From a virus, in IMG/VR virus record IMGVR_UViG_3300045988_173816, positions 192,001 to 256,000 of that record: DNA of 64,000 nt; one strand, given 5' to 3'. Each line of letters opens with the position of its first letter. Position 1 is the stretch's first letter. A program made the translations under genes and the position numbers. Under the pieces are notes generated by a model. It ran no database searches. It worked only from the letters and a program-made list of their open reading frames with translations, and was not told where the DNA came from. Below, in pieces: positions 27,157 through 61,745 of this stretch.

Positions 27157-29337
27157 ATGTTTACAAAAAAAGATAAAAAGGTGACGAACCTTTCCCAAAG
27201 TTCGTTAGAAAGTCAGAAGACAAAAGAAAATCAAGAAAAACGTAAGGGTTTTCTTGATAAGTACATTGATTTGATTAAGATGTGGGACTCGGTCTACGAC
27301 GAGTACCGTTCTCGTTACAATCCAGAGCGAGCTTTAGCTTCAAATAGGCGCTTGTACATGGACTCTAACTTCACTTATAGTAAGACTCAAAATGTAACTG
27401 CTTATTATGTCATTGAGGAGTTACCTCCAGAGTTTGAGTTGGGGTATCGAGCTTCACTGCGTTCGATTGTACCAGAAGGTATTTCCATGAACTTCATTGA
27501 AGATAATGAGCCTTATGAAATTAACTGGGACGACCCTAAAGTAAAAACTCGTTTGTCGGTACTGGATGAAGTAAGTGTGAAGAACCAAGAAGAGTCTAGT
27601 AAGGGTTCTAGGTTTACTCAACATAAGTATGTAAAAACAGCTCAAAAAGATGAGCGTTTATCGATTTCTGTGGAATATGCTAATGATGCGACTTTGAGTG
27701 ACCAAGATAAGCGTTACTTATACAAGGTTCGTATTATGGTTATTATCACAGGTCGAAGAGGTCCAGAGTTTACAGATGTGTTGAAAGACTTTGAGCACAT
27801 GTGTGACCAACGAACTGGGTTTAGAGTTCGTAGGGTAACTGGCACTATTGCAGATACTATGGGGGATTTCTCACCTTTTAACTCAGAAATGTCTAAGGAG
27901 AGTAAACGTAAAATTCGCTCTACTTTCACTTCTGATGAGTTAAGAGCACAGTGGCACCCATTTGAGCAGGGTATCGTTGGTTTTGGTACGACTTACTTAG
28001 GTACAAATATTGAAACTCACTCTCCAGTTTTCCACCAATTTAAACGTGACGTTACAGATGCTGAGATTGTAATTGTAATTGGTATGTCTGGGTCTGGTAA
28101 GTCGTTTGAAATGAAGATGTTAGCTACACAGTTTGCAGCTAATGATAATATGATTATGACTATCAATGACTATGAAGGTGGAGAATACAAAGGTCTAGGT
28201 CAATTGCTTGCTGAAGATTTCCAAGTTGTTTCGTTGGATTTGGGAATGGGTTCAGGTCGTTACCTCGACCCAGTTCCGATTGTTCCAACTGGTGATGAAG
28301 AAATGGACAATACCTTGTTTACTCGTTCTCGTAAGAATATTATTGACTTGTTCAGAGCAGTAGCTGGTTTGGAAACCTTGAAGAAGTACGCTTGGATTCC
28401 TTTAATTATTGAGCGTGGGGTTGACTTGTTTTATAGTAACTATGGGGTATCGATTGACCCTCAAACGTGGCACGCGCTAGAGGGTTGCTCTATTTATACA
28501 GTATATGAGTATTTGAAAAAATATCGTCCGAATTTAGATGATGTTTTAAACTCTATTACTGAGGAAGATAAAAATATTTTAAGTGAAGAAGATATTAAAG
28601 AGTTGTACAAAGACGCTTTAAAAGACTTTCAAAAAGACTATCTTTATTTCTTGGAAACCTTTGGTTCTTATTTTGAAAAAAGTAAGAAGTTGAACAACTA
28701 CTTTAAATATCCGATTTACTTAAAGGATATTATTGATGCAAAATTAGTTATTTGTGACTATAACATGCGTGGGGTTCCAGAAAGTCAGTTGTCTGAATTG
28801 GATGCTATTCTTATTCCTATGAATGCAGCAACTGTAGCTTATTACCGTACTGTGTATCCTTTCTCACGTGGTCTTTACAATGTGAAGATTTGGGAGGAGT
28901 TGCAACGTTTCAGCTCTCTTCCAAATGCAGTAGAGATTTTGAAAACTCCAATCACAGGGGGTCGTAAAGCAGGTGATATTAACATTGTTGCTTCCAATGA
29001 TCCAGTTAAATTGGTTGAAAAAGATGAGTTCTCCTTGTTTGCTAACTACACATTAGCAATGGTTGGTAAGATTAAGTCCCCAGTTTATCAAGAGATTGTA
29101 TGCAAGGCTCTCGGTATCACTGATTTAGCTGATGAATTAGCCGAGATTGGTTCTGTTATCGAAGAGGATGAGGGTTTGACTGCGGGTTATGATGAGGTTC
29201 ATGCAGAACCTTATAAGAAAGCCTTTGTTTTGAAATTGAACTCTGGGGAATCTTCAGTTGTAAAAGCAGACTTACCTCGTGCTTTAAGTGATACTCCACT
29301 CTTCAAGACCGGTGTGATTGCGCAAGACAAACAGTAA
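27157..29337 (+). CDS. VirB4/TraE/TcpF-like type IV secretion ATPase
   Basis: 726 aa. Walker A IVIGMSGSGKSFEM in the C-terminal half, with a downstream KIWEELQRF segment. The size and position next to the coupling ATPase are typical. Confidence 0.7.
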   Translation: MFTKKDKKVTNLSQSSLESQKTKENQEKRKGFLDKYIDLIKMWDSVYDEYRSRYNPERALASNRRLYMDSNFTYSKTQNVTAYYVIEELPPEFELGYRASLRSIVPEGISMNFIEDNEPYEINWDDPKVKTRLSVLDEVSVKNQEESSKGSRFTQHKYVKTAQKDERLSISVEYANDATLSDQDKRYLYKVRIMVIITGRRGPEFTDVLKDFEHMCDQRTGFRVRRVTGTIADTMGDFSPFNSEMSKESKRKIRSTFTSDELRAQWHPFEQGIVGFGTTYLGTNIETHSPVFHQFKRDVTDAEIVIVIGMSGSGKSFEMKMLATQFAANDNMIMTINDYEGGEYKGLGQLLAEDFQVVSLDLGMGSGRYLDPVPIVPTGDEEMDNTLFTRSRKNIIDLFRAVAGLETLKKYAWIPLIIERGVDLFYSNYGVSIDPQTWHALEGCSIYTVYEYLKKYRPNLDDVLNSITEEDKNILSEEDIKELYKDALKDFQKDYLYFLETFGSYFEKSKKLNNYFKYPIYLKDIIDAKLVICDYNMRGVPESQLSELDAILIPMNAATVAYYRTVYPFSRGLYNVKIWEELQRFSSLPNAVEILKTPITGGRKAGDINIVASNDPVKLVEKDEFSLFANYTLAMVGKIKSPVYQEIVCKALGITDLADELAEIGSVIEEDEGLTAGYDEVHAEPYKKAFVLKLNSGESSVVKADLPRALSDTPLFKTGVIAQDKQ

Positions 29338-29358: not shown

Positions 29359-29532
29359 ATGATATTATTAAGTTTAGTGCTTTTTCTAGGAGGTATCCTT
29401 TGGGGAGTTTCAAACTCTATAACCTCTGAGAAGTTAAAAGAAGAGGTTAAGAAGAGTCGTTTCCTCGTAATTGGGGTAGGTGTGGTCTATGTTTTAGTAG
29501 TCCTTGCAACAACGTTAGAAGGGAAACACTAA
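29359..29532 (+). CDS. 57-aa two-TM membrane protein (not in the ORF track)
   Basis: MILLSLVLFLGGILWGV...FLVIGVGVVYVLVVLATTLEGKH. GGTG RBS. TAATG overlap with the next gene. Confidence 0.5.
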   Translation: MILLSLVLFLGGILWGVSNSITSEKLKEEVKKSRFLVIGVGVVYVLVVLATTLEGKH

Positions 29533-32021
29533 TGGATTGGCGAAATTCAAATGATGATTTAACGAGACAATCAGATGCTCGAAGGGAGCGAGAAAATCAA
29601 CCTTTTGAAAATGGGATTAGAGATAGAGACTCAGGGGGTTTCGGCGGTATGCGCCAAGGTCCAGGTGGCGACCCTTTAGCTCGTATGAGAGGTGCGCAAC
29701 CTGACCCTTTTGCAAATCGAGTAGGTGGAGGTTTACCTCCTAGACAACCGTTTGGACAACCTCAAGGGTATCCACAACAAAACCAACCCCCTCAACATTT
29801 GAGTCAACATGAAGATTGGATGGATAAAACTTTTAAAGTAGTTACAGGTTTGTGGAAACATTTAACTTCTTATGTGTGGCCTGTCTTGTCTGAGTCTGAT
29901 GATATGTTCAGAAGTGACTACAAACTAAGAAAAGGGTTAACTGCTGCTCTCTTCTATTATGGTGCAGTAGGTGGGTTCTCTTTCTTGTTTGGTTTGTTTA
30001 CGAAGTTTGCAACTGCACCAGTTATTTTCGTATCTCTTGTAGGCGGTGGAGCGAGTGGTGGTATTTTCTTGTATAAGAACTCTCAGAATAAGGAGTGGGG
30101 GTTGATTGATGACTCTCCAAAGGAAGAGACTTACCCTCAAGCACCTCAACCGTCAGAGTTTGGCGCTCCAAGGGGTTTTATGGATGATGGTTTTGGTTCT
30201 CCAAATTCTAATCCTATGGGTGATTTTGGACAACCTCCAAGAAGAGAAATTCCAAATGAATTTAGAAACTTTGGTTCAAGTGGTGGTTGGGATGATGAAG
30301 AGGAAGAACCTCCATTTCCCAAAAGACAAGGTTTTGAACCTATGATGAAACCAAATCCTACTCCATTTGATGATTTGGAAGAAGATGATTTAGAAACTCC
30401 TTCCAAGGGTATCCCCTTAAAAGGCGCAAGCGCTAAGGATATTTGGGGGAGCATAGACGATTCTGAAGATGATTTAGAAGATGAAACAGAAGAGACAGAG
30501 GGTAATTCAAATAGTTCCAGAGAAGAATTAGAGAATCCTAAAGTTGAAGAAGTTTCCGAAAGTGCATTTAGTGCAGATTTAGCAGGTGGTATCGTTGAAC
30601 CAGAGTTAGTTTCCCGTAGACTTCTTGTAGATAAGTATTTATCTCTTTTAGACGGTTCTAGCTTAAAACCTGATTGGTCTCGTGAGGTTCCAGAAGATAG
30701 TGTAGAGTTTAAACAATTAGAAACATTCCTTCGAGACGCCCAAACAGGTGGAGTTAAAGGTTTGTCTGAGATGGATTGGGTTAATGTGAAGTCTATTACA
30801 GAGCGAGTGTCTGTATTTGAGATTATTACTGATCGTCCAGAGAAATTAAAAGGTAAAGAAACTCTCTTTGCAAAAGAGATTACAGAGTTGCTGAAAGACC
30901 AAATGAAGGGTTATTTTGGAGATAATGTAACCACTACTGCAGTTGGTAAAGGTAGTCGTATTGCAATTACTATCTTTAAGCAAACAGGTACTTCCTTTAT
31001 GTTGAGAGATTTGATTGAGTCGAGTAAAGATTTCTTCTTAGACACGAAAAATGAACTTCCAGTTGTATTCGGAGCTGATGAATATGGAGAACCGATTCTT
31101 CTTGATTTAGCAAAACACACAGGTACAATTATTGCAGGGATGGCTCGAACAGGGAAGTCTGTTCTTGCTACGGGTATCGTTAATCAAATGATGGCTTTAA
31201 ACTCTCCTCGTAAGGTTCAAGTCGTAGCTGGTGATATGAAAAACAAAGACTCTGACTGGTATCAGATTACCTTACCTCACTTGCGTAAGTTTGCAACAGG
31301 TACAAAAGCGATTATGGACTTGCTTGATTGGGTTGTATCTGAGGAAGCCCCAAGAAGAAAGAGATTGATTGGTGACCAGTTGAAAATTCAAAACTACAAT
31401 GCGAATTGTTCGGATGAGTCTGAGCAGTTGCCTTACTTATTTGTAGTGTTGGATGAAATTATTTCTTTTGCTGAGAAGTTAGACAAAGATGAAAAAGCAG
31501 TGTATAAAGCTTATTTGAGTGAAATTTTAACTGCTTTCCCTAATGTCGGTATCTTCTTAATTTTCGTACCTCATCAACTACACAATGATTACTTCCCTAA
31601 AACGGCTTCTCGTATGGTGGGGAATAGATTTGCAGTTAAGGCAGGTCAACCAATTCAGAAAACGATTTGGGAAGACTCTTATCGTCAAATTGACTTCCCA
31701 ACCACCAACACAGGTGACTTTGCTTACACTCTCGCTGGGTCTGATGAGCCTAAGTTCGGTCACGCTCCTTTGATTATGAGCATGAGTGGTGGTAAAGAGC
31801 GTTTAGATAAGTTGTATGAAACTCAGCGTAAAATGTGGACGAAGTTATACCCAGAAGAAGCAGCTACATCTGCTTATGTCACTCGTTTGAAAAATGAGCA
31901 GGCAAGTGCAACGTTAGGTAAGCTCGGTATTCCAGTTTCGGACACGGATTTCGCAGAAGAAGACTCTTTACGTTTTCCTAAGTCTAATACAAGTAATGTA
32001 GACTTTATTCGAGACATTTAA
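29532..32021 (+). CDS. FtsK/SpoIIIE-family DNA translocase / type IV coupling protein (TcpA / Tn916 Orf21 type)
   Basis: Gly/Pro/Gln-rich disordered N-terminus, TM helices and an acidic linker. Motor domain with Walker A IIAGMARTGKSVL and Walker B LFVVLDEIISF. Confidence 0.8.
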   Translation: MDWRNSNDDLTRQSDARRERENQPFENGIRDRDSGGFGGMRQGPGGDPLARMRGAQPDPFANRVGGGLPPRQPFGQPQGYPQQNQPPQHLSQHEDWMDKTFKVVTGLWKHLTSYVWPVLSESDDMFRSDYKLRKGLTAALFYYGAVGGFSFLFGLFTKFATAPVIFVSLVGGGASGGIFLYKNSQNKEWGLIDDSPKEETYPQAPQPSEFGAPRGFMDDGFGSPNSNPMGDFGQPPRREIPNEFRNFGSSGGWDDEEEEPPFPKRQGFEPMMKPNPTPFDDLEEDDLETPSKGIPLKGASAKDIWGSIDDSEDDLEDETEETEGNSNSSREELENPKVEEVSESAFSADLAGGIVEPELVSRRLLVDKYLSLLDGSSLKPDWSREVPEDSVEFKQLETFLRDAQTGGVKGLSEMDWVNVKSITERVSVFEIITDRPEKLKGKETLFAKEITELLKDQMKGYFGDNVTTTAVGKGSRIAITIFKQTGTSFMLRDLIESSKDFFLDTKNELPVVFGADEYGEPILLDLAKHTGTIIAGMARTGKSVLATGIVNQMMALNSPRKVQVVAGDMKNKDSDWYQITLPHLRKFATGTKAIMDLLDWVVSEEAPRRKRLIGDQLKIQNYNANCSDESEQLPYLFVVLDEIISFAEKLDKDEKAVYKAYLSEILTAFPNVGIFLIFVPHQLHNDYFPKTASRMVGNRFAVKAGQPIQKTIWEDSYRQIDFPTTNTGDFAYTLAGSDEPKFGHAPLIMSMSGGKERLDKLYETQRKMWTKLYPEEAATSAYVTRLKNEQASATLGKLGIPVSDTDFAEEDSLRFPKSNTSNVDFIRDI

Positions 32022-57022: not shown

Positions 57023-57034
57023 TAACAGAGTGAA

Positions 57035-57057
57035 AGAGAGCTAAAGCTCTCTTTTTA
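57035..57057 (+). terminator. rho-independent terminator
   Basis: Stem AGAGAGC-TAAA-GCTCTCT followed by TTTT. Confidence 0.7.
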
Positions 57058-57058
57058 C

Positions 57059-57087
57059 TTGATTTAATAGGGTTTTTGTGATATAAT
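57059..57087 (+). promoter_or_regulatory. sigma-A type promoter of the 57113-59632 operon
   Basis: TTGATT (57059-57064), 17 bp, TATAAT (57082-57087). Confidence 0.6.
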
Positions 57088-57112
57088 AGAGAAAATTTAG
57101 GAGGTTTTGTTT

Positions 57113-57622
57113 ATGAAAGTCAGTAAAGAAAAAGCAATAGTAACATTTAATTATCCGTATCAGTTGTATGGAATTAGTTTTGCTCTTGATGAGGTTAACT
57201 ATGAGCATCTGTATAAAATGTTTATTAGGTATTGTTCTCGTTATGATGGTTTTGCCTTTAGCGTTTTAAGTAAAAACCCCGATTTCAGCTATTTCACCAA
57301 AGATAAACAGACGGTGCGAAGCCAGATAGATTTGATTTTCAATGAAGTATTAGCTCTGGACTTAGATGCTGAAGGGTTTTGTGAATTTGGTACGATTGAG
57401 TCCGACAACGGTGTTAAAGTACATGTTTGTTTTAGCAAGCTTTCCGATACAAGTGGTAGAGTGACTAAAGAAAATTCTTTTGCAGCACCTGTAATTCTGT
57501 TTGAGTTTAAACTTTCAGTACGTGGTGAAGATCGTCCAAAAGCTCGATTTCTAATGACCATTACAAAAGAAAAAGACTTGAAGCAAGGTTTACCTGATTG
57601 GGGTATTCAGTATGAAGATTAG
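57113..57622 (+). CDS. 169-aa protein, tandem paralog 1
   Basis: ATG at 57113 after AGGAGG. Homologous throughout to the next gene (KE.AIVTF.YPYQ...VRSQIDLIFNEVLALD...TKEKDLKQGLP.W). Confidence 0.65.
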   Translation: MKVSKEKAIVTFNYPYQLYGISFALDEVNYEHLYKMFIRYCSRYDGFAFSVLSKNPDFSYFTKDKQTVRSQIDLIFNEVLALDLDAEGFCEFGTIESDNGVKVHVCFSKLSDTSGRVTKENSFAAPVILFEFKLSVRGEDRPKARFLMTITKEKDLKQGLPDWGIQYED

Positions 57623-58106
57623 TAAAGAAACCGCAATAGTAACGTTCACTTATCCGTATCAGTCTCATGGGGATAGCTACTTTCTTGACGAAATTAACTA
57701 CGAAGATCTGTACAAGTTTTTCATTGATTATTGTACTTACTTTGACGGATTTGCCTTTAGTGCTTTAACTTCTAACACAACATTTGCTGATTTTACGGAA
57801 AACAAAGAGACAGTGAGAAGTCAAATTGATTTGATTTTTAATGAAGTATTAGCCTTAGATACAGATGCTAAGGGTTTTTACAAATACGGTACTGTAAAGT
57901 CTGAGAGAGGTCTTACTGTAGATGTTTGTTTTAGTAAGTTTTCGGATACAGAACCTAGAGTCGTTGATTATGGTTCTCATATTTCTCCTTTGATTGTCTT
58001 TAAGTTTGAACTTTCTTTTCTTGGTGAGAAACGCCCAGAATCTCGTTTTATGATGACAGTTACGAAAGAAAAAGACTTGAAACAAGGTTTACCTAATTGG
58101 AGGTAA
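57612..58106 (+). CDS. 164-aa protein, tandem paralog 2
   Basis: The start overlaps the end of paralog 1. See paralog 1. Confidence 0.65.
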   Translation: MKISKETAIVTFTYPYQSHGDSYFLDEINYEDLYKFFIDYCTYFDGFAFSALTSNTTFADFTENKETVRSQIDLIFNEVLALDTDAKGFYKYGTVKSERGLTVDVCFSKFSDTEPRVVDYGSHISPLIVFKFELSFLGEKRPESRFMMTVTKEKDLKQGLPNWR

Positions 58107-58112
58107 TATTAT

Positions 58113-58442
58113 ATGTTTAAATTATCAAACGGAAAAACATATTCCCGTTTAGAGATTTACTGCTTTGATGACTCGCTAGGTTATATAACGAAAACCCCAC
58201 AAGGGTATCATTTTACACTCGTCAAGTCTGAAAACCTCCGCCACAAGTTCACTTTGCTTAATTTGAGTGAACAATCTACCTCAGAAGAAATAAGAAACTG
58301 GATGAAGGGGTGCTTAACTATAACCGATTCACGCGCTAATAGAAGTGAATGTTATCCAAGCTGGTGTCGTACAATGGAAGATGAGATTTCGGTTTATTCT
58401 CACTTTCTTGATTGTGATATGAGGAGGTGGGAATATGTTTAA
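58113..58442 (+). CDS. HipA N-terminal-subdomain-like protein (HipS-like)
   Basis: 109 aa. SLGYITKTPQGYHFTL and EEIRNWMKGCLTITDSRAN resemble the HipA N-terminal pattern (vG.L....g.y.F.Y ... fF.nLLP). GGAGG RBS. Overlaps the kinase gene start. Confidence 0.45.
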   Translation: MFKLSNGKTYSRLEIYCFDDSLGYITKTPQGYHFTLVKSENLRHKFTLLNLSEQSTSEEIRNWMKGCLTITDSRANRSECYPSWCRTMEDEISVYSHFLDCDMRRWEYV

Positions 58443-59241
58443 ACCTACCTCAAGTTTAGGGTATCAACCAAAATACACTTCTCCTAATGGTGGTTATTGG
58501 TACAAAGAAGATTTTAAAGGTGGGGAAGCTTTTGTGGAAGTTTTAGTTTCTACTTTTCTAAGGTCTTGTAATTATATGACTTCTAAAGATTTTGTACCTT
58601 ACTACTTTAAACACACTTCAGTTGATTCTTTTGATTTAAGAACTTGTGTGTCTTCAAACTTCTTACAAAAAGGAGAGCAGTTCATTTCATTTAAAAACCT
58701 TTTGTCTTTAGTGCATCCTCCTACGGATACTTTAGTAGGTTTCGACTCTAAATTAGACTATATTAGTTCTGTTTTCCAACAAACGGTCGGTCAGTCTTTC
58801 CGAGAAGAACTGTTAAGGTTGTTGACGCTAGATGTTATGTTTAGAAACACAGATAGACACCTCTCCAATTTCGGTATTATTTTAACTCCTAACTGCTCTA
58901 TTCGGTTCGCCCCTATATTTGATAACGGACTTGCTTTAGGGGTCTCAGAAGGTGCTTATTTTGATTTAGACAACCTTATAAAAGGTTTCGGTTATAAAAT
59001 TAAACCTTATGAACTTGCGGTATCCACTTTATCTCCAAAAATTGATACTTCTTATTTTCCGTTTGATGTCCTTTATTTTGTTGAGGTAGTGGATAAAAAT
59101 ATTCCTAAGTCCAATCTATTGTTAGGTTTCTTAAATTTGTTGGTTTTGTATTATCCGACTGATTGCAAGGGTAGAGACACTAAAGAGGTTTTAGAGTCCG
59201 TATTTGGCGAATTTAGTAGAAAGAGATTTTTAAATGACTGA
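58435..59241 (+). CDS. HipA-family Ser/Thr kinase core (HipT-like, N-terminally truncated)
   Basis: SLGYQPKY (GxQxK loop). Catalytic MFRNTDRHLSNFGIIL and RFAPIFDNGLAL (D.H..N ... aP.yD). Confidence 0.7.
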   Translation: MFKPTSSLGYQPKYTSPNGGYWYKEDFKGGEAFVEVLVSTFLRSCNYMTSKDFVPYYFKHTSVDSFDLRTCVSSNFLQKGEQFISFKNLLSLVHPPTDTLVGFDSKLDYISSVFQQTVGQSFREELLRLLTLDVMFRNTDRHLSNFGIILTPNCSIRFAPIFDNGLALGVSEGAYFDLDNLIKGFGYKIKPYELAVSTLSPKIDTSYFPFDVLYFVEVVDKNIPKSNLLLGFLNLLVLYYPTDCKGRDTKEVLESVFGEFSRKRFLND

Positions 59242-59632
59242 TCAAGCTATGTCTAACGCTCAAGGTTTCAAAGTTTGGTACAACAATAGAAAACGAAGTA
59301 GTGTGGTGCTTTTAACTTTAGTTCTTATCTTTTTATTGACTAGTTTCTTACCTAGTTTTATTAAGAACTTCCCAACTTTAATTACCTATGTTTTTGGATT
59401 TTCGAAGGTTAATGCTTTTGTTCCTTTAAAGTTTACTTATTTTATACGTTTTAGCTTTATTTACTTGGTATCCGTTGGTTTTACTGCACTTATTGAAACA
59501 AATGAACTAGAACCTTATGACAATTTGACCTTTTTAATCTTCTCATTATTTATGGTTTTAGTAGTTGTAGTTGTTTCTTTAATAGGTTTCCTTTTTATTT
59601 CTGCAACGGTTCCAACTAATTTAATTAAATAA
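59234..59632 (+). CDS. small polytopic membrane protein (3-4 TM) coupled to the kinase gene
   Basis: The start overlaps the kinase stop. Hydrophobic segments VVLLTLVLIFLLTSFL, FIYLVSVGFTALI and FLIFSLFMVLVVVVVSLIGFLFI. Confidence 0.6.
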   Translation: MTDQAMSNAQGFKVWYNNRKRSSVVLLTLVLIFLLTSFLPSFIKNFPTLITYVFGFSKVNAFVPLKFTYFIRFSFIYLVSVGFTALIETNELEPYDNLTFLIFSLFMVLVVVVVSLIGFLFISATVPTNLIK

Positions 59633-59647
59633 GAAAGTGGTATTTAA

Positions 59648-59927
59648 AATGTTAACGAAGATTTAGACGAACTAATTGAAGACTACAACGAACGCTATCG
59701 CAACGCAAACGATTGGGTATTCTACGCTACAACAGAACTTGAACTAGAAGAAGCAAAAGCAAATAAAGCTCAATTAGTTCACGATTACTCTCAAGCTCTT
59801 TACGACTTCTTATGGGACAAACTTCCTCAACTAACTGCAAAAGATTGCATTGCTTTTGATTTAGTGCCTTATGGGGTGTGGAAACGGTTTAGTGGAAAAT
59901 TTGGTTTGATTTTAAAGAAAATTAAGG
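59648..59927 (+). pseudogene. 5' part of a gene split by the second IS607 copy (also lacks a usable start)
   Basis: Open frame NVNEDLDELIEDYNERYRN...GLILKKIK with no ATG/GTG/TTG start. The nearby ATG at 59649 is in another frame and stops after 5 codons. Fuses in frame to 61966-62330 if the IS is removed. Confidence 0.55.
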
Positions 59928-59951
59928 AGTAATCTCCTGTAAATAAATTTG

Positions 59952-59986: not shown

Positions 59987-60610
59987 ATGATTAAATTACA
60001 AGACATGGCTAACCGATTAGGTGTCAGCATAAAAACATTACAAAGATGGGATCGTGAGGGTATTTTAGTAGCTAAACGAACCCCAACTAATAGACGTTAT
60101 TACACAGAAGACCAATACTTGTCTTATGTAGGTAAATCTCAACCTAAAGGTTTAATTTTGGCTTACACAAGGGTATCCAGTAGAGGTCAAATAGATGATT
60201 TAATTTCACAAACAGAGTTTTTAAAGCAATTTGTAAATGCCAAAGGTGAGATTTTAGATGAAGTTATTTCAGATATAGGTTCTGGTCTTAACTATAACCG
60301 TAAGAATTGGAATAAATTACTTTTAGATTATGTAGCTAAAGGTTTGGTGAGTAAAATCTATATCACTTATAAAGACCGATTTGTTCGTTTTGGTTTTGAT
60401 TGGTTTGAGCGCTTTTGTAATTACTATAACTGTAAAATTGTAGTAGTGAAAAATGAAACTACCTCACCACAACAAGAATTGGTAGATGATTTAATTTCGA
60501 TTATCCATGTGTTTTCTTGTCGTATTTATGGTTTGAGAAAGTACAAGAAGGAGTTGAAGGACGATGAGAGCGTACAAGACAGAAATAGACCCAACTCCAA
60601 GTCAAATTGA
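59987..60610 (+). CDS. tnpA: IS607-family serine recombinase transposase
   Basis: MerR-like HTH LQDMANRLGVSIKTLQRWDREGIL. Catalytic AYTRVSSRGQIDDLISQ. YKDRFVRFGFDWFE. Confidence 0.85.
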   Translation: MIKLQDMANRLGVSIKTLQRWDREGILVAKRTPTNRRYYTEDQYLSYVGKSQPKGLILAYTRVSSRGQIDDLISQTEFLKQFVNAKGEILDEVISDIGSGLNYNRKNWNKLLLDYVAKGLVSKIYITYKDRFVRFGFDWFERFCNYYNCKIVVVKNETTSPQQELVDDLISIIHVFSCRIYGLRKYKKELKDDESVQDRNRPNSKSN

Positions 60611-61745
60611 GTTGATACATAAGACTTTTGGGTGTACTCGATATATTTACAACCAATTTGTATCTGAGAACTTAGAGAATTTAGCTTCGGATAAAGACTT
60701 TATTTCTGCTTTTGACTACTCAAAAAGAGTCAATAACGATCCTACTACACCTACTTGGTTAAAAGAAGTACCAAGTAAAGCAGTAAAACAAGCTTTAATT
60801 TATGCAGATAGGGCTTTTAAAGACTATTTTTATAAACGCAATGGTAAACCTAAGTTTAAAAAGAAAGGTTTAAGTGAGAGTTTCTACCTCATAGGAACTA
60901 TAAAAGTTGAGCGCCATCGTATATTTGTACCTGTTTTAAAGTGGCTTCGTTTGAAGGAGTTTGGCTATATTCCTAAGAACATCACCTCTGTAACAATTTC
61001 CATGAAAAATGGCAGATATTACATTTCTTGCTTATGTAAAGATGAAATTGATGAACGTATTCCTTTGTCTGACTACAATATGGGTATCGATTTTGGTCTG
61101 AAAGACCAATTTATTACAGAAGATAGAATTATACCTTCTATCAATAAGTCTTTGCGTATTAGAAAATTGGAACAACGTTTACGAAGAGAACAAAGAAAGT
61201 TGTCTCGTAAATATGAAGCAAATATGGTCGATAAGGTTTACTATCAATCCGGGGCTAAGAAAGGTCAACTTAAGTCTTATAAGTGGTTGAAACCTTTATC
61301 TGAGTGCAAGAATATTCAAAAGCAGAAATTGAAAGTAGCTCGTATCCGTGAGCGTTTAACTCGTATTCGAACGGAATATAATCGAAAAGCATTGCGTTCT
61401 TTAGTTTTAGAGCGAAAACCAAGCTCTATTACTATTGAAGACTTAGCAGTGTGTAATATGATGAAAAACCGTCATTTGAGTAAAACGATTTCAAAAGCGC
61501 AGTGGTATCAGTCTCGACTTTACTTAGAAAATTTGTGTAAAAAGCTAGGTATAAAATTGAGATTAGTAAGTAGATTTTATCCATCTAGTAAACTATGTTC
61601 GGATTGTGGTTTTAAGTATAAAGACTTGAAACTAAACGAAAGAGCTTGGACTTGTTCTAATTGTGGTAGTAAACATGATAGAGATGTTAATGCAGCCATC
61701 AATTTAGGACAATGTAAAGAATATACTGTATTGACTGCAGTTTAA
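60564..61745 (+). CDS. tnpB: TnpB RNA-guided nuclease
   Basis: MRAYKTEIDPTPSQ...TRYIYNQF. RuvC motifs MGIDFGLKD, TIEDLAVCNM and DRDVNAAINL. Zinc ribbon CSDCG...CSNCG. Confidence 0.85.
   Translation: MRAYKTEIDPTPSQIELIHKTFGCTRYIYNQFVSENLENLASDKDFISAFDYSKRVNNDPTTPTWLKEVPSKAVKQALIYADRAFKDYFYKRNGKPKFKKKGLSESFYLIGTIKVERHRIFVPVLKWLRLKEFGYIPKNITSVTISMKNGRYYISCLCKDEIDERIPLSDYNMGIDFGLKDQFITEDRIIPSINKSLRIRKLEQRLRREQRKLSRKYEANMVDKVYYQSGAKKGQLKSYKWLKPLSECKNIQKQKLKVARIRERLTRIRTEYNRKALRSLVLERKPSSITIEDLAVCNMMKNRHLSKTISKAQWYQSRLYLENLCKKLGIKLRLVSRFYPSSKLCSDCGFKYKDLKLNERAWTCSNCGSKHDRDVNAAINLGQCKEYTVLTAV

Follow-up and report, generated by a model that had tools for sequence, protein, structure and literature searches.

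The window analyzed here is a stretch of 64,000 nucleotides (positions 192,001 to 256,000 of IMG/VR record IMGVR_UViG_3300045988_173816), in which five genes between 57059 and 59632 include a minimal kinase of the HipA family and a small gene directly upstream of it. A previous examination of the letters of this DNA, here called the sequence-only reading, had described these genes as an operon for a split HipA kinase, flanked by tandem paralogs and a small membrane protein. All five plus-strand open reading frames (ORFs) it listed were found again, together with the following signals:

57032-57055, plus strand: intrinsic terminator that ends the upstream DUF975 gene, with a 10-bp stem and then a T run
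57059-57087, plus strand: sigma-70-type promoter with TTGATT, a spacing of 17 nt, and the extended −10 box TGTGATATAAT; 10 of 12 consensus positions and the TG motif
57107-57622, plus strand: p171 gene with the start codon TTG, encoding p171, a member of a family of ~165-aa proteins
57612-58106, plus strand: p164 gene, encoding the second ~165-aa paralog
58113-58442, plus strand: N109 gene, encoding a HipS-like protein of 109 aa
58422-58427, plus strand: AGGAGG ribosome-binding site of the kinase gene, within the M-R-R-W codons of the N109 gene, with the ATG 7 nt further on
58435-59241, plus strand: K268 gene, encoding a predicted minimal HipA-family Ser/Thr kinase core of 268 aa
59234-59632, plus strand: TM132 gene, encoding a small basic membrane protein of 132 aa

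In gene order, the junctions are an 11-nt overlap, a 6-nt gap, and two 8-nt overlaps, the last of which places the start of the membrane protein gene upstream of the kinase stop, as had been claimed; TM132 has three hydrophobic segments and an isoelectric point of 9.6. GGAGG or AGGAGG sites are located inside the final codons of the p164 and N109 genes, and an ATG at 57113, preceded by an AGGAGG site, is the probable start of p171. All the genes are under purifying selection, as judged from the ratio of nonsynonymous to synonymous substitution rates (dN/dS), which was 0.05 to 0.11 for N109, 0.09 to 0.15 for the kinase, 0.09 to 0.28 for p164, and 0.44 for TM132. The absence of a helix-turn-helix (HTH) partner was confirmed, with no HTH family matching any of the five proteins in Pfam and NCBIfam scans; the nearest HTH belongs to the recombinase of an IS607-type element. 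The four nonkinase proteins had no match in Pfam, NCBIfam, PADLOC, or PHROGs, and no direct DNA match to the region was present in the phage or plasmid collections.

K268 was the only one of the five proteins to be recognized by existing models, and the claim of a 268-aa HipA kinase core held. Pfam HipA_C (PF07804) matched residues 60 to 163 with an E value of 9.5e-8 and 32.4 bits, compared to a cut-off of 30.5 bits, and PADLOC assigned the protein to PDLC04340 (PDC-M03A) with an E value of 3.6e-16, followed by seven further PDC-M03A models. Using HipA of Escherichia coli K-12 and HipT of E. coli O127:H6 as references, the three motifs GYQPKY, FRNTDRHLSNFG, and FAPIFDNG aligned with the Gly-rich loop, the catalytic motif, and the Mg-binding Asp of HipA/HipT, respectively. 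The Gly-rich loop reads S6-S7-L-G9-Y-Q11-P-K13, in which S6 corresponds to S150 of HipA and S57 of HipT. The catalytic motif is N-T-D140-R-H-L-S-N145-F (NTDRHLSNF), and the Mg-binding segment is I-F-D163. Residues G9, K13, K24, D140, H142, N145, and D163 were invariant across 30 relatives with identities down to 24%. By its residues, K268 is thus predicted to be a catalytically intact HipA-family Ser/Thr kinase core.

A family profile built from the 30 relatives found CtkA (3akj) as the best match in PDB with an E value of 1.4e-10, followed by the Legionella HipT (8ezr_B) with 7e-5. Because the profile matched CtkA better than HipT, the K268 family is nearer to the small “clade XI”/PDC-M03A and CtkA-type kinases than to HipT. 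An exhaustive search recovered 768 kinase cluster representatives at an E value of <1e-3, which were mostly core-only proteins of 230 to 290 aa; some had 340 to 423 aa and N-terminal extensions.

The closest of these representatives outside the near-identical cluster, P0142 of locus L006, shows what the small protein N109 is. This 382-aa protein starts with a full copy of N109, which is followed by a linker of ~10 residues and then by the kinase. The fused locus and the split 110-aa plus 265-aa pair of another contig share the same gene order and 73% DNA identity, and the two forms are separated by a 20-nt indel at the junction. A second connection came from the same element, which encodes a fused HipA-like paralog of 405 aa (genome positions 167423-168640; L002:778-1995) with no adjacent partner gene. 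Residues 134 to 403 of this paralog align with K268, and its N-terminal extension could be joined to the N109 family via an intermediate N-domain with E values of 1e-4 and 2e-7. On another contig of ~218 kb, P0296 is a stand-alone protein of 98 aa that is nearly identical to the N-terminal extension of the 405-aa paralog, which suggests that this kinase type also occurs in a split form. From these comparisons it can be stated with high confidence that N109 represents the kinase's own N-terminal subdomain, produced as a separate polypeptide. A programmed frameshift that would join both ORFs was considered and rejected: the kinase is in frame +1, a slippery site is not present, and the kinase has its own ATG and ribosome-binding site in the relatives examined.

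Whether this subdomain is also related to HipS had to be judged from weaker similarities. The AlphaFold2 model of N109 reached a predicted local distance difference test (pLDDT) score of 73.6, and when it was compared to PDB with Foldseek, the top match was HipS of HipBST (7ab3_E) with an E value of 0.15 and template modeling scores of 0.40 to 0.43, which is not significant; HipS and HipA N termini nevertheless made up much of the list. Comparison of the N-domain alignment with a HipS/HipA-N profile by hhalign paired columns 11 to 64 with 3 to 57 (P value of 0.002). None of 150 column shuffles reached the real score of 21.6, the mean of the shuffles being 11.0 with a standard deviation of 2.2. 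The template profile used was thin and consisted of five sequences, and a scan of genome contigs yielded six close loci of the Enterobacteria type. N-domain profiles compared to PDB sequences gave noise only. The resemblance of the 109-aa protein to the HipA N-terminal subdomain, as proposed from the letters alone, is therefore weak but present, on the basis of the top Foldseek match, the shuffle-tested profile match, and the fusion in relatives; its complete absence, which would have spoken against the proposal, was not what was found. Homology of the N-domain to HipS and HipA N-subdomain 1 is held with moderate confidence. The N109 family itself is narrow, with 82 clusters and the longest contigs in the range of ~190 to 300 kb, and a wider protein search with a broader N-domain profile added five more distant clusters, none of them annotated.

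Which part of the five-gene unit has been conserved could be deduced from the related loci. Every sampled short kinase of the clade had a small N-domain gene directly upstream. The sample covered L003 to L005 with 77 to 82% kinase identity, L024 and L025 with 50%, L009 with 40%, L010 with 35%, L026 and L027 with 34 to 43%, L008 with two tandem pairs of 45% and 30%, and megaplasmids of Streptococcus salivarius and Streptococcus equinus with 35%. Most of the N-domain/kinase pairs overlap by 8 nt, and a site of the GGAGG or AGGAG type preceded the kinase start in most of the junctions read (L003, L004, L005, L008a, L008b, and L009). The conserved module is the pair of N-domain and kinase and not the five genes, because the pair was kept widely, the ~165-aa genes were confined to close relatives, and TM132 was sporadic.

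This distribution also bears on the possibility that a formerly fused gene was split by a lesion of the frameshift type and that the pair is a decaying, nonfunctional remnant. The existence of fused relatives, the 20-nt indel between the fused and the split form, and the kinase-deleted alleles described below would be in agreement with decay. On the other hand, the split comes with a ribosome-binding site and usually an 8-nt overlap, and it was maintained down to about 34% kinase identity; the dN/dS values were 0.05 to 0.15 for both genes, and all catalytic residues were invariant. Such a remnant is therefore highly improbable and its assumption close to refuted.

The three remaining genes were compared in the same way. 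The tandem paralogs of the sequence-only reading proved to be 64% identical over 163 aa with an E value of 1e-79. p171 shares 60 to 64% identity with the single copies in relatives, and p164 is 87% identical to the single copy in L004 and L005 and 55 to 57% to that in L003 and L033. This identifies p164 as the orthologous copy and p171 as a diverged extra copy. The family was found only in close relatives (L003 to L005, L033, and L034), where it is single-copy, so that the duplication occurs in this element only among the loci examined; L006, L008, L009, L024, and the Streptococcus megaplasmids do not contain it. A scan of viral contigs for p164 returned only three contigs, which were already part of the set. 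With 55 to 65% identity between lineages compared to 77 to 87% for the flanking genes, the family is fast-evolving. p164 is a soluble, acidic alpha+beta protein, and its AlphaFold2 model had a pLDDT score of 80, with no match in PDB in the fold search and only uncharacterized viral proteins in BFVD. The candidate assignments as a HipB-like, HTH, or SecB-like protein were rejected; the model had no HTH-like structural match in PDB or BFVD. Of the close relatives, only L005 and L034 have the TM132 gene, which was not found in L003, L004, and L033.

Transcription of these genes may start at the promoter between 57059 and 57087. Promoter-like sites as a class were no commoner in the sequence than in shuffled versions of it. 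The −35 and extended −10 boxes of this one, however, were identical in the window, L003, L004, L005, and L033, and the hairpin of the terminator upstream was maintained in five relatives by compensatory changes in the stem. Since these signals were kept despite dS values of 0.4 to 1.5 in the flanking genes, both the promoter and the terminator are under selection. Of the two signals said to frame the operon, promoter and upstream terminator were thus found and are conserved, but a scan detected no terminator that closes the unit 3' of 59632. This indicates that the transcription unit probably continues downstream of the TM132 gene.

One conserved promoter for all five genes would fit a five-component system, in which the ~165-aa paralogs replace HipB as a non-HTH third component, for instance a sensor, decoy, or regulator, and TM132 contributes an effector or immunity part. 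In agreement with this assumption, p164 is coupled to N109 by the embedded GGAGG, it directly precedes N109 in every close relative, including those with a deleted kinase, and it evolves faster than its neighbors (55 to 87% identity compared to 77 to 87%). The same p164 is nevertheless lacking in L006, L008, L009, L024, and the Streptococcus megaplasmids, although each of them has the pair. TM132 is missing in L003, L004, and L033, the duplication occurs only here among the loci examined, and the fold of p164 had no informative match. A five-component system is consequently improbable, and the proposal of five genes as one system, which the sequence-only reading had brought forward, did not withstand the comparison with distant loci.

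The pair was compared with five known groups of HipA-like kinases. HipS neutralizes HipT in HipBST (PMC6581861, PMC10627512, PMC9325769). As in HipBST of E. coli O127:H6 and Legionella pneumophila, a protein of ~100 aa representing N-subdomain 1 is encoded directly upstream of the kinase core, here with overlapping genes, and the Ser residues of the Gly-rich loop occupy the autophosphorylation position. In contrast to HipBST, there is no HipB/HTH gene, and the kinase has 268 aa instead of the ~335 aa of HipT. The N-terminal mini-domain of HipT is absent from K268, so that the Gly-rich loop starts at residue 6 and the split point is located 5 residues before it. By a weak alignment, N109 has no evident counterpart of the Trp65 wedge, which follows the LAPEG motif and gives HipS of E. 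coli its inhibitory action, and Pfam Couple_hipA does not detect N109. In addition, the module is not chromosomal but is carried by Streptococcus megaplasmids and by a giant plasmid-like element of the conjugative type. The layout thus differs from that of the described HipBST systems, as had been stated, by combining a split kinase and a small gene immediately upstream with the absence of an HTH partner.

Pairs named hipJS, composed of a kinase and a HipS protein without a DNA-binding partner, have been predicted (PMC8262856), and PDC-M03 was described as a pair of HipA and a HIRAN protein (PMC13245101), which corresponds to the hipIN type of Gerdes et al. 2021 (PMC8262856). Similar to these clade XI kinases, K268 is a small core-only enzyme with a Gly-rich loop near the N terminus and a partner that is HipS-like and not DNA-binding. 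The HipS-like gene is, however, located upstream and not downstream as in hipJS/hipIN, K268 is shorter than the reported 279 to 321 aa, and the family alternates between fused and split forms. No HIRAN domain, the partner in hipIN/PDC-M03, was matched by PADLOC or Pfam in any neighboring gene.

CtkA (JHP0940) of Helicobacter pylori is likewise a stand-alone Ser/Thr kinase with the HipA fold and a similar size and is encoded on the tfs3 integrative and conjugative element (ICE). It is the closest solved structure by profile, albeit with a match that spans the central ~130 residues only. Its signaling activity requires the type IV secretion system of that element (PMC5536186). The material examined indicated no HipS-like partner of CtkA, and CtkA is reported to act on eukaryotic host cells, whereas nothing here suggests such an action. 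HipA of the hipBA system of E. coli K-12 shares the catalytic motifs, and its N-subdomain 1 is co-linear with N109 (a hairpin at 12 to 36 followed by 55 to 68), but it is a single chain of 440 aa with an additional N-subdomain 2, and its activity is under the control of HipB, an HTH antitoxin. The HipA-family kinases of “Gratiaviridae” gut phages (Benler et al. 2021, PMC8008677) are also carried by mobile elements in human-associated bacteria, without HipB and with an unknown role. They differ in being encoded in phage genomes between portal and capsid genes, together with an ATPase and a glycosyltransferase, and no split form has been described for them.

Natural variants of the locus provided information about the relationship between the two proteins. 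The loci L033 (4320-4580) and L034 (4320-4565), which come from different assemblies, carry the same internal deletion in the kinase gene, by which the first ~11 codons were joined to those of the last ~73 residues and all catalytic motifs were lost. The p164 and N109 genes remained intact in both. Because L033 and L034 differ by the presence of the TM132 gene, the deleted allele has persisted, and its existence means that the kinase is dispensable for the element. The reverse case, loss of N109 with the kinase kept, was not seen among the loci examined. For a toxin and its antidote, one would expect the kinase to be lost and the small gene to be kept, and this small sample is in agreement with that expectation.

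With a probability of about one in two, the pair may be understood as a growth-arrest kinase restrained by a HipS-like protein, which serves as a stabilization or abortive-defense module. N109 and K268 would be made together in a fixed proportion from the overlapping genes, and N109 would dock on the kinase core in a 1:1 ratio, as HipS does on HipT, and restrain the kinase for as long as the complex is left intact; loss of the element and an invading phage are examples of events that could disturb it. Once freed, the kinase may act on a host protein, which by analogy could be a translation factor, for instance an aminoacyl-tRNA synthetase (the target in HipBST is TrpS). Phosphorylation of this protein would stop growth, resulting in a role as a toxin-antitoxin-like conflict module for stabilization or abortive defense. 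The ~165-aa paralogs and TM132 would share the transcript as neighbors and not as conserved components. An inhibitory role of N109 is favored by the HipBST precedent, the hipJS prediction, and the kinase-deleted alleles.

Several observations weigh against such a restrained toxin. Most type II toxin-antitoxin modules possess an autoregulator that binds DNA, and the pair has none. The likeness to HipS is statistically modest. Adding more distant N-domains decreased the hhalign score against HipS from ~22 to 14.9, so that the likeness has the support of a single modest comparison and of the fold search, and Pfam Couple_hipA (PF13657) found no match in the whole genome or in nine N-domain variants at E values up to 10. 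The segment that aligned, albeit weakly, to the Trp65 wedge of HipS reads L-T-I-T-D-S-R-A-N-R and contains no Trp, and the invariant residues W63 and W84 of N109 are located away from this position; Trp65 is not universal among HipS proteins (PMC10627512). Moreover, fused and split forms alternate in the family (P0142 is fused, P0296 looks split), and fused relatives occur alone or in tandem with no candidate antidote. The N-domain may thus be an integral subunit instead of a labile inhibitor.

Such a subunit would make the pair a split enzyme, in which N109 is an obligatory structural or substrate-recognition part that completes the active kinase, as in the fused relatives. The enzyme would be expressed early in a new host and phosphorylate defense or translation proteins of this host, acting as an establishment or counter-defense effector. 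This explanation is less probable than the restrained toxin, but plasmid establishment has to be taken seriously as a competing role.

The 284-kb record is filed as a virus in IMG/VR and has terminal repeats. In the window, it contains genes for a VirB4-like AAA_10/TraG-like ATPase, an FtsK/SpoIIIE ATPase, a CHAP/GDSL hydrolase, and SNF2 and DnaB helicases, the first of these being located as follows:

27157-29337 and 29532-32021: VirB4-like ATPase, with the FtsK/SpoIIIE ATPase and the CHAP hydrolase nearby

A protein encoded by Bacillus thuringiensis plasmids of ~350 kb, which is the size of pXO16, aligned with 94% of the VirB4-like ATPase at 33% identity, and the 50,697 phage records contained no match to this ATPase. 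Three phage hallmark families, TerL_ATPase, Phage_capsid, and Phage_portal, were scanned for and found no match in the genome, although a divergent phage might escape these three. Owing to the plasmid match of the VirB4-like protein, the FtsK/SpoIIIE and CHAP genes, and the missing hallmark matches, the element looks like a giant conjugative plasmid of the pXO16 type and not like a phage; the assignment as a jumbo phage was dropped on account of the plasmid-type VirB4-like match and the absence of the three hallmark families. A neighboring adhesin carries a YSIRK-type signal, which together with the relatives on Streptococcus megaplasmids points to streptococci as the probable hosts. The pair belongs to the accessory gene content of this conjugative plasmid-like element of 284 kb and the pXO16 type.

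Upstream of the unit in the window are a ParB/HNH gene and the genes for an 897-aa zincin protein and the DUF975 membrane protein, and part of the zincin protein is common to the plasmid region of S. equinus. On the S. salivarius plasmid pIKMIN-B501 (L023:1412-8486), the order is an AcrIIA9-family anti-CRISPR gene, PcfJ, N-domain, kinase, and a giant SNF2 gene; on this isolate megaplasmid and that of S. equinus (L022), the pair comprises 115 aa plus 231 aa and is annotated as hypothetical. A short metagenomic contig (L028:495-4155) carries three diverged fused HipA-like kinases of 385, 426, and 384 aa in tandem, preceding DnaD/HTH_36 and ArdC-N/Peptidase_M78 genes, and this trio resembles a kinase array on a conjugative element. 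Accessory “conflict” regions of conjugative elements typically look like these neighborhoods. The AcrIIA9, PcfJ, ArdC, SNF2, and zincin neighbors fit establishment or counter-defense as well as they fit a stabilization module, and this again counts against the restrained toxin.

A split enzyme would be in agreement with these surroundings, namely, the tandem fused kinases beside the DnaD/HTH_36 and ArdC-N/M78 genes, the order on the Streptococcus megaplasmids, and the location of the unit behind the ParB/HNH gene and the gene for the zincin protein, part of which is shared with S. equinus. It would likewise agree with the interchangeable fission and fusion in the family, the fused 405-aa paralog that stands alone in the same element, and the ICE location of CtkA, the closest solved relative, with its dependence on the secretion system of that element (PMC5536186). 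The kinase-deleted lineages, however, persist, which shows that the element can do without the kinase and keeps the small gene in its absence. Since neither an oriT nor a relaxase was located, placement in a “leading region” is unproven, and a survey of anti-defense genes of leading regions (PMC11541004) does not contain the word “kinase.”

An extension of this thought to the whole family would be that HipA/CtkA-like kinases, encoded alongside genes for anti-defense and establishment on conjugative megaplasmids and ICEs of Gram-positive bacteria, have repeatedly split and re-fused and may act as counter-defense or host-takeover effectors in a newly entered cell, with the ~165-aa protein as a specificity or decoy partner. 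This is speculative and unlikely, although, if true, it would provide the first kinase-based plasmid establishment factor.

With regard to novelty, split HipA kinases, HipS-like partners without an HTH protein, and HipA-family kinases on mobile elements including phages (PMC8008677) have already been described or predicted. New are the arrangement with the small gene first and without HipB, the very short core split at the Gly-rich loop, the N-domain family not detected by Pfam, the carriage by giant Gram-positive plasmids, and the natural series of fused, split, and deleted forms. The split HipA kinases known until now are mostly those of tripartite HipBST systems in Proteobacteria, and pairs of the hipJS type have only been predicted. 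The present family represents a minimal form of the split principle, a HipS-like protein of ~110 aa and a core of ~230 to 270 aa without a DNA-binding partner. In Firmicutes of the mouth and gut, it is carried by megaplasmids and by giant plasmid-like elements of the conjugative type. Since Pfam does not see the N-domain family, the annotation of such pairs is at present that of hypothetical proteins. With fused, split, and kinase-deleted alleles side by side, the question of whether splitting off N-subdomain 1 creates an antitoxin becomes testable, and the anti-CRISPR and ArdC surroundings raise the possibility that HipA-like kinases are involved in plasmid establishment.

Just 3' of the unit, at window positions 59987-61745, is the IS607-type element, encoding a serine recombinase of 207 aa with MerR and resolvase parts and a TnpB/OrfB protein of 393 aa. 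It appears to be a private insertion, as neither of its ORFs had a blastp match in L003 to L005. Between the unit and this element, positions 59648-59930 contain a homolog of a gene of ~95 to 99 aa that is located near the pair in relatives. It shows a one-base difference at the third codon compared to L003 to L005, by which the conserved frame is out of register with the ATG at 59650, so that this homolog may be a pseudogene or use another start.

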